IMG/VR virus record: IMGVR_UViG_3300009285_008166
DNA: 13,925 nt
Source: a virus
Strand: one strand, 5' to 3'
In this document: positions 3,771 to 5,957 of the stretch, one piece after another
How the letters are laid out: the number at the start of each line of letters is the position of its first letter
How positions within the stretch are numbered: the first letter of the stretch is position 1
Notes under the pieces: generated by a model
Database searches by the model: none
Seen by the model: only the letters and a program-made list of their open reading frames with translations
Told to the model about the DNA's origin: nothing
Program-made: the position numbers and the translations under genes

Positions 3771-4028
3771 TTAATCCCGCCCGCCCCGCTCTATGGGACC
3801 GTTGCTGTAGTTTTGAACCTGGGCTTGCGCAAGGCACGCATGCACACAGCCGTCGGCTCTGTCCAACAGGTCGAAGACTCTAACTTGCTTCTGCCGGCTC
3901 TTTGTGACGAGCGCCAGACACGTGTTCACATTGGCGTCGGCCGCGTCGACAGCACGACGTTGCTTAATGACGTCGGCCGTCACGTAGCCGATAGCGATAC
4001 CGGTTATTATGGCGAAGATGTATCTCAT
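3771..4028 (-). CDS. Small membrane protein, 85 aa, with one N-terminal TM helix (MRYIFAIITGIAIGYVTADVI) and a soluble C-terminal part
   Basis: Internal ATG at 4028..4026 overlaps the TGA of the macro-domain gene (ATGA). The longer 117-aa track ORF (3771..4124) overlaps that gene extensively and has a non-protein-like N-terminus. Confidence 0.5.
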   Translation of the reverse strand: MRYIFAIITGIAIGYVTADVIKQRRAVDAADANVNTCLALVTKSRQKQVRVFDLLDRADGCVHACLAQAQVQNYSNGPIERGGRD

Positions 4029-4489
4029 GGCGTAGCCGTTGGCTCCGACGCCGCCGGGCCGTTGTGTAGAACCGTGAAACGGTCGTCGAGCGTAAGCGCC
4101 AGTACGGGCCGGACCAAATCCCACGATAGCCGCCCGTTGCCCGTGCCCACGCGGGGCAAAACGACGTCATGGCAATGATACATGATCACTACGTCAACAA
4201 GTTCCGAGGCCGAACGCGCGATCAGGTCCAAGTCGGCGTTCTGTTGCCATTTGTTCTTCACAGGGAAAATGAACACGCCGGGGCCAGATGCGATGCGAAA
4301 GACGTGCGTGTCGCCGGCCCTAAGTCTTGCGCCCAACGCCCAAGGTATATCAGGCCAGCGTTGCGCAGCGGCTAACGCTACGCCCCGACCCATGACCGCC
4401 GCGCCGTCCGACCGCACAGAACAGTTTGTCGGAACGACAATGCCGTCGGCGTTTGGCCACGCAAAAATATCGCCGTAGCGCTCTTTCAC
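4025..4489 (-). CDS. Macro-domain protein (ADP-ribose binding/ADP-ribosyl hydrolase family), 154 aa
   Basis: GDIF...ADGIVVPTNCSVRSDGAAVMGRGVALAAA resembles the macro-domain signature GDIT...A.AIVNAAN..L..GGGV..AI. GTG start overlaps the upstream TGA (GTGA). Confidence 0.65.
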   Translation of the reverse strand: MKERYGDIFAWPNADGIVVPTNCSVRSDGAAVMGRGVALAAAQRWPDIPWALGARLRAGDTHVFRIASGPGVFIFPVKNKWQQNADLDLIARSASELVDVVIMYHCHDVVLPRVGTGNGRLSWDLVRPVLALTLDDRFTVLHNGPAASEPTATP

Positions 4490-4917
4490 GGCAGTTTGTA
4501 CAGGGTCTTAACCAGCGCTGAAAAGCTCTTGTAAAGTGCCTCGGTTTCGGTCTGTGACATATCGCCCACGCCTTGGCTGTGTTTAATCCAGAGTGCTTGC
4601 AGGCTTTTGAAGTCGACTTTGAACAACGTCTTACAGGCTTTTTCGACTTTGGGCAAAAGCTTTCGGTCGTTGAACCGCAAGTCCCAGTACCACGGGGAGA
4701 CTTGGGGCCTGTTTGACGTGTGGTTGGCAATTCGCATCGTGACAACAACAGGCTTCGCATACTGGCCAAGTAGCGCCGCGTGGACGTACATGGAGCCGGC
4801 CGGCGATTCCATCCGACGAATCTCGACGTAGGGGTTTGCGCTAAACACAGCCAAGAGCCGGGCTACCGCCTCGTCCCGGTTTTTGACCGCAAGACTGCCT
4901 CTAAGCTGAGTCTTCAT
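4486..4917 (-). CDS. Hypothetical protein, 143 aa; lower-GC gene
   Basis: ORF track. ATG at 4917 lies 3 nt after the stop of the small repeat ORF. No recognisable motif. Confidence 0.6.
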   Translation of the reverse strand: MKTQLRGSLAVKNRDEAVARLLAVFSANPYVEIRRMESPAGSMYVHAALLGQYAKPVVVTMRIANHTSNRPQVSPWYWDLRFNDRKLLPKVEKACKTLFKVDFKSLQALWIKHSQGVGDMSQTETEALYKSFSALVKTLYKLP

Positions 4918-4920
4918 GGC

Positions 4921-5082
4921 TTAGCCGCGCTGTGCCGCCTCCGACGCCCGCGACGCCTCCGACGCCCGCGACGCCCACGACGCCCACAACGCCCACGACG
5001 ACGACGACGCCCACGATGCCAACGACGCCCACGCCGCCCACGCCGCCCGCGACGTCGACGCAGCTTGTATAGCGGCGGTCAT
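4921..5082 (-). CDS. Small repeat-encoded ORF (copy 3), 53 aa: MTAAIQAASTSRAAWAAWASLASWASSSSWALWASWASRASEASRASEAAQRG. ATG at 5082..5080 overlaps the TGA of the RNA ligase gene. Its TAA lies 3 nt before the ATG of the 4486..4917 gene.
   Basis: Hand translation. It is translationally coupled at both ends. Not in the ORF track; 4901..5179 there is a different frame. Confidence 0.4.
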   Translation of the reverse strand: MTAAIQAASTSRAAWAAWASLASWASSSSWALWASWASRASEASRASEAAQRG

Positions 5083-5085
5083 GGC
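4924..5085 (-). repeat. Triplet-periodic GC-rich repeat element, copy 3
   Basis: Same unit structure and conserved end. Confidence 0.8.
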
Positions 5086-5957
5086 GTAGGCAGCAACGCC
5101 GACTTGATTCGCGCCGTGAACAGCTTCGCAGCCCGCGTGCCGATGGCACGGCGGACGTCTTTGCTGTCCACGATTTCACCGGCCGCCTCGCGCATGACGT
5201 CTTCGATCATGGCGGATACGACAAGCGGCGTTGTCTTGATGTCCGTAACGTCCTTGCCGGCCGCTGTCAGCTTGTCCAATACGTGAATCATGCGCTGCTC
5301 GACGACCCATTCATCAGCGACGGCGTTTGCCGCGGTCAACACTGGTAGCTTGTCTATCGACGTGACCTTTGGGGTATGCAGACGTTCGGCGAAGGCGTCG
5401 GACTTGTGCTTAACGATGATGCGTTCGCCGTTGTTCTTGGTCAGTTCAATCAAAGGCCGCACGACGATGCCCTCACGGGGCCGGGGCTCGGTAATGCCAA
5501 GCCGTACGGCTATCTCAGAAGGCTTGTCCCGCTCGGCGTTCAACGCTTCGACGGTTGCTTCGACTTTAGTCCAAGGGACAAAGTCCAATTTCAAAAGCGT
5601 GGCGAGGTCATAAGCATTCGGAACGTTGAGCCAGGCCGTACCGACTTTGACGTCGAACGCCACGAAGCGCAGCGCCGGCCCGTACGTGTCCTTCATGCCT
5701 TGCATACTGCCGCCGTAAACTTCGCCGTAGACCGTAACGCTGTCATAGCCAAGGACGGTGAATGCGGCGGTCAATGCGCCCGCGTCGAACAGCGCAGTAA
5801 AGGCCACGTGCTTAGCGCCGCCTGAAAAGAACGTCAGTTTGCCTTGCGACCAGCCGACGTGACTGCTCGAACCATGGATTTTTTCGGTGCTAAAGCACTC
5901 GCGAAACATGAGGATTTCTTGCTGACGGTACAGGTTCTTAATGTGTAGATAGGACAT
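5079..5957 (-). CDS. ATP-dependent RNA ligase, Rnl2-like nucleotidyltransferase family, 292 aa
   Basis: Motif I EKIHGSS matches T4 Rnl2 EKIHGTN (a KxHG lysine-adenylate motif). A GAGG RBS lies about 9 nt upstream of the ATG at 5957. GC is lower than in neighbouring genes. Confidence 0.7.
   Translation of the reverse strand: MSYLHIKNLYRQQEILMFRECFSTEKIHGSSSHVGWSQGKLTFFSGGAKHVAFTALFDAGALTAAFTVLGYDSVTVYGEVYGGSMQGMKDTYGPALRFVAFDVKVGTAWLNVPNAYDLATLLKLDFVPWTKVEATVEALNAERDKPSEIAVRLGITEPRPREGIVVRPLIELTKNNGERIIVKHKSDAFAERLHTPKVTSIDKLPVLTAANAVADEWVVEQRMIHVLDKLTAAGKDVTDIKTTPLVVSAMIEDVMREAAGEIVDSKDVRRAIGTRAAKLFTARIKSALLPTP

Follow-up and report, generated by a model that had tools for sequence, protein, structure and literature searches.

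The 13,925-base viral contig IMGVR_UViG_3300009285_008166 from IMG/VR was analysed over its complete length (hereafter the window), with attention to two enzyme genes that lie close together on the minus strand, one for a stand-alone macrodomain protein of 154 amino acids (aa) and one for an RNA ligase of 292 aa. From sequence comparison, the macrodomain protein is very probably an active hydrolase of the DarG clade, and its substrate is slightly more likely than not to be the adenosine diphosphate (ADP)-ribose placed on phage DNA by a DarT2 toxin, as for the phage protein AdfM. The ligase was assigned with high confidence to the Rnl2 type. The two genes are probably independent accessory genes of a groundwater phage or prophage-like element, and not a co-adapted cassette. 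An initial annotation of this DNA had proposed a counter-defence cassette with a recently acquired ligase; its observations were confirmed in part, and of its interpretation the two enzymes were upheld, while the unit and the acquisition of the ligase were not.

Macrodomain protein

The macrodomain protein (macro protein) scored 19.7 bits with the generic Pfam Macro model, under the 22-bit cut-off. It matched the DarG models of PADLOC (1e-16) and NCBIfam (NF048014, 1e-14), the latter only in its macro half (model positions 6-137 of 338; 54.6 bits, cut-off 250). When the single sequence was compared with the PDB, the DarG macrodomains of M. tuberculosis (3.6e-8) and T. aquaticus (1.8e-7) were retrieved. 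With a profile built from 27 family members, these two structures scored 8.8e-20 and 9.7e-17. SCO6735 (1.5e-12) and TARG1/OARD1 (about 7e-10) ranked next, and the matches to all other kinds of macrodomain were at 3e-3 or weaker. On these comparisons the protein is nearer to the DarG clade (DarG2/TARG1) than to other macrodomain clades. SCO6735 is referred to in PMC9411070 as a remover of thymidine-linked ADP-ribose from DNA. A match was also obtained to phrog_335, named 'phosphatase' (2.5e-19).

The initial annotation had proposed that this protein is of the kind that reverses DarT-type ADP-ribosylation, and had pointed to the catalytic glycine-rich loop as the part to be checked on alignment. 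Both glycine-rich loops were intact (VMGRG, residues 32-36; GTGNG, residues 115-119), and with the DarG matches and the conserved catalytic residues they are consistent with that proposal. Residues invariant in the 27 family members include T21, N22, M33, G34, G36, K78, G115, G117 and G119, of which N22, M33, G34, G36, K78, G115 and G119 are also unchanged in two DarG macrodomains and in two AdfM proteins. The predicted active-site residues are K78 (in FPVK) and N22 (in PTN), both invariant in the family. In an alignment that included AdfM, they line up with N22/K80 of T. aquaticus DarG2 and N23/K78 of PhiKZ AdfM, which are the active-site residues of those proteins (PMC13309987).

AdfM (anti-DarT factor macro) is a stand-alone DarG2-like macrodomain of nucleus-forming phages, which strips DarT2-installed ADP-ribose from DNA (PMC13309987). 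The window protein was 26% identical to the AdfM of PA1C (PhiKZ gp104-like; 3e-11, pairwise BLASTP), and in a 2.3-Gb tblastn search AdfM orthologues were matched at 4e-3 (Asesino gp217) and 1e-3 (PA1C). The proteins related to it are about 150 aa long, likewise stand alone and are encoded in phage-like contigs. Those with 30-39% identity were present in at least 80 cultured phages, mostly under the annotations 'phosphatase' or 'ADP-ribose binding protein'.

Because of this homology and the conserved catalytic residues, an AdfM-like role is proposed for the window protein. A host DarT2 toxin would place ADP-ribose on thymidines of single-stranded phage DNA, and the macro protein would hydrolyse it as AdfM does, so that replication could proceed. 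The protein would work purely as an enzyme, because the C-terminal DarT-binding domain of DarG was not found in its 154 aa with the NCBIfam DarG model. No adjacent darT gene was present, the upstream 143-aa gene being without DarT similarity in Pfam, NCBIfam and PADLOC. If the protein is AdfM-like, orphan DarG-type counter-defence would extend beyond the nucleus-forming jumbo phages, in a separate and widespread subfamily of environmental phages and of many cultured Proteus, Morganella, Klebsiella, Vibrio and Bacillus phages.

Three points weigh against so specific a role. The equivalence of N22 needs a 6-residue insertion, and the pairwise HMMER alignments differ at this position, with only the alignment including AdfM in agreement (the lysine equivalence of K78 was found by every alignment method). 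The activity of DarG-clade macrodomains, TARG1 for example, extends to protein- and RNA-linked ADP-ribose and to O-acetyl-ADP-ribose. Finally, the substrate of the macro protein is not readable from its sequence.

A target other than DarT2-modified DNA is a less probable reading. Such targets would be ADP-ribosylated proteins, RNA ends or messenger RNA, O-acetyl-ADP-ribose, or soluble immune signals or toxins derived from ADP-ribose. TARG1/OARD1 comes next among the solved relatives and has been deposited as an O-acetyl-ADP-ribose deacetylase, and phage macrodomains have been argued mainly to counter low-molecular-weight ADP-ribose derivatives (PMC9503650). In the same framework, a YAcAr/SLOG gene present in the window is a predicted handler of such nucleotides, and its homologue adjoins a macro homologue in another contig. 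Nevertheless, the three solved relatives with the best scores are all enzymes that hydrolyse ADP-ribosyl-thymidine in DNA, and AdfM, the only phage members of the clade tested so far, act on DarT2-modified DNA (PMC13309987).

The YAcAr/SLOG-family protein of the window is 130 aa long (12977-13369, minus strand; PF10686, 7e-11). Its gene is 8.5 kb from the macro gene in the window, and a homologue with 50% identity directly adjoins a macro homologue in contig L015 (6455-6916). This adjacency hints at a functional link between the macro and SLOG proteins.

The gene directly upstream of the macro gene encodes a 143-aa protein without relatives (an ORFan). None was found among 1.8 billion representative proteins in two large protein searches, nor was there a family match in four libraries, and a low-confidence structure model resembled only generic alpha+beta domains. 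The open reading frame (ORF) looks coding, with guanine-plus-cytosine (GC) content highest at third codon positions and lowest at second positions (GC3 > GC1 > GC2), and it is translationally coupled to the macro gene. We considered whether the ORFan and the macro protein form a phage-borne pair resembling a toxin-antitoxin system, in which a modifying toxin would precede a reversing antitoxin as darT precedes darG. The GTGA overlap between the genes indicates translational coupling, the order of an upstream toxin and a downstream macro gene would be that of DarTG, and a regulator of the ribbon-helix-helix (RHH) type lies in the same module. Such a pair was nonetheless judged highly improbable: the ORFan is without similarity to the DarT or ADP-ribosyltransferase models of Pfam, NCBIfam and PADLOC, the genes upstream of the macro homologues examined are unrelated, and the macro protein is without the toxin-binding domain of DarG. 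Neither the family searches nor the structure model gave support for a DarT-like toxin role of the ORFan.

RNA ligase

The ligase matched PF09414 over the cut-off (9.7e-10) and phrog_548, 'RNA ligase' (5.7e-24). More than 1700 homologues were found, nearly all of about 290 aa and unannotated, in IMG/VR contigs and in prophage-like loci of many phyla. Conservation was assessed in 18 homologues with 50-65% identity. Invariant residues were E25, K26, H28 and G29 in motif I (EKIHG; KxHG), G78, E79, Y81, G82 and G83 in motif III (GEVYGG), F98 and F101 in motif IIIa (where D102 is D or E), E162, G163, R167 and P168 in motif IV (EGIVVRP), and K183, H184 and K185 in motif V (KHK). Motifs III to V, on which the initial annotation had made its assignment depend, are all present, together with motifs I and IIIa and the Rnl2 C-terminal domain. 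The active site for adenylyl transfer is complete, and like the macro protein the ligase appears catalytically intact.

No match in the PDB was obtained with the single ligase sequence. The family profile retrieved only T4 Rnl2 (2HVQ, 1.7e-9), with profile positions 160-277 aligned to T4 Rnl2 residues 203-323, a region that takes in motif IV, motif V and the C-terminal domain specific to Rnl2. The AlphaFold2 model (mean predicted local distance difference test score, pLDDT, 87.5) consists of a nucleotidyltransferase domain at about residues 1-190, a flexible linker and a four-helix C-terminal domain at residues 204-288. Full-length T4 Rnl2 was the top Foldseek match (1.7e-11) and the only one to align over the full length; it was followed by a Naegleria ligase, a trypanosome editing ligase and, far lower, T4 Rnl1 (2e-6, poor superposition). 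The Rnl2 type named in the initial annotation is in agreement with the PF09414, profile and Foldseek results. A point against it is the score with the NCBIfam equivalog model TIGR02307, which at 46.1 bits did not reach the cut-off of 197. Identity to the rnlB proteins of cultured phages was 24-27%. By these comparisons the enzyme is a member of a distant Rnl2 subfamily and not an orthologue of T4 rnlB.

The predicted activity is most likely the stand-alone sealing of 3'-OH/5'-PO4 nicks in which the 3' strand is RNA. The ligase would self-adenylylate on K26, pass the adenosine monophosphate to the 5'-phosphate, and then seal the nick in duplex RNA or RNA:DNA, acting alone and without an end-healing partner. 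The initial annotation had presented an Rnl2-type ligase as the classic phage answer to anticodon nucleases of transfer RNA (tRNA). This was a misattribution, as the classic answer is Rnl1 with Pnkp, and the role of Rnl2 in T4 infection is unknown according to Shuman's group; Rnl2 favours nicked duplexes over anticodon loops (PMC3884662). Since the role of phage Rnl2 is open, this stand-alone Rnl2-like subfamily would be useful to sample, although a single instance adds little.

Gene order and linkage of the two enzymes

All credible genes of the window are on the minus strand. The features of the region are, in the direction of transcription:

5079-5957, minus strand: Rnl2-type ligase dependent on adenosine triphosphate, 292 aa (PF09414, phrog_548, family profile against the PDB, Foldseek)
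4942-5081, minus strand: intergenic element, copy 3 (tandem repeat finder and alignment of three copies)
4486-4917, minus strand: 143-aa ORFan (ORF)
4025-4489, minus strand: stand-alone DarG2/AdfM-like macrodomain, 154 aa, GTG start, predicted ADP-ribosyl glycohydrolase (DarG models)
3771-4028, minus strand: small protein of 85 aa with a hydrophobic N-terminus (ORF; same gene called in sibling contigs)
3434-3769, minus strand: RHH-type DNA-binding protein, 111 aa, last gene of the variable module (phrog_4738)
3301-3436, minus strand: intergenic element, copy 2 (leader, array of 9-nucleotide (nt) units and terminator-like hairpin)

The ligase gene is separated from the 143-aa gene by a 161-base spacer that holds a repeat array. 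The stop codon of the 143-aa gene overlaps the GTG start of the macro gene (GTGA), and the stop codon of the macro gene overlaps the ATG of the 85-aa gene (ATGA). No family match was found for the 85-aa protein in Pfam, PHROG or PADLOC. The 111-aa protein matched phrog_4738, 'transcriptional repressor', at residues 8-47 (3.6e-5), and weakly the N-terminal RHH region of NikR in NCBIfam (2.7e-4). No sigma-70-like promoter was found in 3200-6300, and the only terminator-like hairpin at a gene end in that interval follows array 2.

The macro and ligase genes are thus parted by a repeat array and an ORFan. The neighbourhoods of 30 ligase homologue loci (406 kb), taken from viral contigs, metagenomes and GTDB genomes, were inspected. 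None of the 30 encoded a protein homologous to the macro family or to another protein of the window, and no recurrent RNA-repair or end-healing family was seen among the 143 neighbouring ORFs of at least 140 aa. The commonest domains were helicase, HNH, methylase and primase. Conversely, none of 3 macro loci contained a homologue of the window ligase. A conserved macro-ligase linkage was rejected on this lack of co-occurrence in the 30 ligase and 3 macro loci, and the counter-defence cassette of the initial annotation, with no macro gene and no recurrent healing partner near the ligase homologues, could not be upheld.

The initial annotation had also remarked that no Pnkp-like gene is obvious nearby, and indeed neither Pnkp nor another end-healing enzyme was found in the window in Pfam, PHROG, NCBIfam and PADLOC scans. 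It had suggested a gene resembling a deoxynucleoside kinase (dNK) as a stand-in. This gene was rejected as a polynucleotide kinase or Pnkp substitute, since it matched PF01712 (8.4e-14) and the deoxynucleoside kinase structure 8PUU (3.1e-14); by sequence it is a deoxynucleoside kinase homologue.

These results bear on the possibility that the macro protein and the ligase cooperate in RNA repair dependent on nicotinamide adenine dinucleotide (NAD) after the cut of a ribotoxin. In this scheme a 2',3'-cyclic phosphate would be opened to a 2'-phosphate, KptA/Tpt1 would move the 2'-phosphate to NAD, the macrodomain would clear the ADP-ribose-1''-phosphate by-product, and the ligase would seal the RNA. 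Phage RNA-repair neighbourhoods that link macro, 2H and KptA proteins with RNA ligases are described in PMC9503650, the family is called a phosphatase by PHROG, and the two genes of the window are on the same strand, about 600 bases apart. We regard the scheme as very unlikely, as no KptA, 2H, Pnkp or RtcB-like gene was found in the window (Pfam, PHROG, NCBIfam and further scans), and the macro protein belongs to the DarG/TARG1 clade, which is the wrong clade for it, no other solved kind of macrodomain scoring comparably. The absence of co-occurrence in the ligase and macro loci, and the existence of sibling genomes with the ligase and without the macro gene, also speak against it. Two independent accessory genes are the preferred description.

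The ligase gene is preceded, at a distance of a few genes, by an SbcC/AAA_23-like ATPase (9002-10753 and 7915-9015, minus strand). Such an ATPase was also seen in two distant ligase loci (L008, 1-946; L021, 1065-3425), and was the only ligase neighbour recurring by eye.

Probable replacement of the macro module in sibling contigs

Identical copies of window genes are present in groundwater metagenome assemblies of PRJNA292723, and sibling contigs were found in this study by exact-sequence look-up of the ligase; all are short-read assemblies. L011 (12.7 kb) and L012, from two sequencing runs, were 99.5-99.7% identical to the window from position 13035 (L011) or 9602 (L012) down to 4942. They diverge from the window at the last unit of array 3, about 25 bases before the next start codon. 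After the array, both carry a gene for an HNH-RNA-ligase fusion (L011 8100-9155; phrog_24030, 5.8e-121; PF09414, 3e-29) and two small genes, and further on, on the opposite strand, an AcrVA2-like gene and a tyrosine integrase. In a third run, L013 shares with the window the junction of ligase, array and 143-aa gene. As a side observation, the L011 arrangement contains two different RNA-ligase-family genes in tandem.

The module comprising the 143-aa, macro, 85-aa and RHH genes therefore probably represents a replacement polymorphism at array 3 between near-identical contigs, as seen in short-read assemblies of a repeat, and is flanked on both sides by the repeat element. As the ligase is 100% identical in both arrangements, the variable unit would be this module and not the ligase. 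The ligase would be part of the conserved backbone, and the macro module the exchangeable, moron-like part. The initial annotation had it the other way round for the ligase, as a recently acquired moron, and this is contradicted by identical copies in siblings with different downstream genes. Apart from this putative swap of a module between arrays, the region has no unusual feature.

Two observations count against a true polymorphism. Parts of both junction variants are present in the same samples (L011, L017), and both variants were assembled from short reads across a repeat, so that misassembly, or the rearrangement of a single genome, may lie behind them. The replacement would then be an artefact, or would reflect two array-containing places in one genome. 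The tandem repeat at the junction is rich in GC, array 1 forms the end of the window contig and of L017 alike, both kinds of contig come from the same sequencing runs, and the array sequences themselves vary between assemblies. However, each junction was recovered twice independently, in different runs or assemblers (L011 and L012; the window and L013), the arrays at different loci are about 80-84% identical and too divergent to collapse at k=127, and the ligase occurs once per contig. Because of the independent recovery of each junction and the divergence of the array copies, co-existing module variants are more likely, and an artefact or duplicate location is distinctly unlikely.

Base composition

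The initial annotation had described the ligase and 143-aa genes as having a GC content of 50-55% in surroundings of 65%. The dip is real and was overstated, the measured values being 54-57% against about 62%. GC content was 57.3% for the ligase gene, 54.2% for the 143-aa gene and 61.1% for the macro gene, compared with 61.9% for the window, 62.6% for the rest of the window and a range of 53.8-66.2% for the other genes. Equally low values occur elsewhere, in a 92-aa membrane protein gene (53.8%) and in the ORF at 13372-13908 (55.7%). The lowest 300-base window of the contig is at 4501-4800 (53.3%), and the trough from 3434 to 5957 (58.4%) is among the lowest 1.6% of sliding windows of that length, interrupted by the array with 76% GC.

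The difference lies mainly at codon positions 1 and 2. GC3 of these genes was 0.68-0.71 against a gene mean of 0.71, and synonymous codon usage was ordinary (leave-one-out z score, -0.76 to +0.58). With ordinary GC3 and codon usage, composition gives no evidence of recent foreign origin, and the recent acquisition that had been read from the dip was not supported.

Repeat elements

The intergenic element is present in three copies in the same orientation, with arrays at 8-114, 3322-3394 and 4942-5054 and leaders extending up to 135, 3436 and 5081. Each copy opens with the TGA that ends the preceding gene; next come a conserved leader of about 29 nt (TGACCGCCGCYRTACAAGCYGCGTCGACG) and an array of 8-12 tandem 9-nt units, TGGGCGTCG on the gene strand. 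In copy 3, the leader runs from the TGA of the ligase gene (5081-5053) and the array contains about 12.6 units; its position between the ligase and 143-aa genes is as the initial annotation had noted. In copy 2, the leader starts from the TGA of the RHH gene, and the array is followed by the terminator-like hairpin at 3315-3301. Array 3 varies far more than the DNA around it: 21 of the 24 differences that separate L013 from the window fall within the array, and for L011 the figure is 20 of 23. About 20 differences thus lie in some 80 nt, against 3 in several thousand flanking nt.

No match to the leader was found in IMG/VR or Joint Genome Institute (JGI) metagenome contigs, and Rfam and tRNA scans of the element were empty. 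A conserved RNA structure of the arrays was rejected, as folding compared with shuffled sequences gave z scores of 0.1 for array 3 and -1.1 for array 2, a marginal difference, and array 1 alone stood out (-4.0). A coding leader with TGA readthrough was also rejected, as the substitutions among the three aligned copies are non-synonymous.

The 9-nt arrays may be binding sites of the adjacent RHH protein. A tentative and rather unlikely further role for these stop-codon-anchored arrays is that of recombination junctions, or protein-bound sites, for swapping accessory or counter-defence modules. If this were true, the arrays would bound phage cassettes in a new way, and the 143-aa/macro/85-aa/RHH module would be one exchangeable cassette with the HNH-RNA-ligase set as its alternative.

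Other features of the window

No virion genes were found in the window, which counts against its description as a phage; that description is drawn from the gene content and the relatives. With megablast, the whole window had no match in collections of phages and plasmids.

The gene that immediately follows the macro module (530-3256, minus strand) encodes a 908-aa protein with domains of the major vault protein (PF11978 MVP_shoulder, 4e-22; PF17795 Vault_3, 6e-11) and a weak SPFH/Band_7 match; it had no PHROG match. At the contig edge, the ORF at 13372-13908 (minus strand) matches the middle of the model for SulP sulfate permeases (PF00916, 7.7e-12, positions 119-269 of 380), and may be a host gene cut short where the element integrated, or a fragment that was acquired. 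Two copies of a 59-base direct repeat with 93% identity (9899-9957 and 10978-11036) are spaced by 1079 bases, in the region of the AAA_23-like gene or close to it.

Comparison with known systems

T4 RNA ligase 2 (gp24.1) and the Rnl2 family, including the trypanosome editing ligases, have the same two-domain architecture as the window ligase and an identical motif I (EKIHG), and counterparts of T4 Rnl2 residues E34, K35, H37, E99, F119, D120, E204, K225 and K227 are all present. The window ligase differs in its low identity (about 16-27%) and shorter length (292 against 334 aa), and in belonging to a large uncharacterised subfamily that is mostly metagenomic. With the T4 Rnl1 and Pnkp system that acts against PrrC, it has in common that a phage encodes an ATP-dependent RNA ligase of the covalent nucleotidyltransferase superfamily; it differs in that the ligase is not of the Rnl1 type and the window is without a kinase-phosphatase.

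For the macro protein, the closest parallel is AdfM (PhiKZ gp104, Erwinia phage Asesino gp217; Cell Rep 2026, PMC13309987), which likewise falls in the DarG2 clade and is made by phages as a macrodomain of about 150-165 aa that stands alone, with the same active-site asparagine and lysine (N22/K78 here, N23/K78 in PhiKZ) and both glycine-rich loops. Unlike AdfM, to which it is only about 25-30% identical, the window protein lies in a separate subfamily, marked by the 6-residue insertion after the asparagine and an invariant TN...VMGRG signature. This subfamily is nearer to macro proteins of, among others, Proteus, Morganella and Klebsiella phages and Bacillus phage SP-15 (32-39% identity). The window protein does not come from a nucleus-forming jumbo phage, and its activity is a predicted one. 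The best solved relatives are the DarG2 macrodomains of T. aquaticus (5M31/5M3E) and M. tuberculosis (5M3I). Unlike DarG2, the window protein is without the C-terminal DarT-binding domain and a neighbouring DarT, and like DarG2 it has kept the catalytic lysine of FP(T/V)K and the GxGNG loop.

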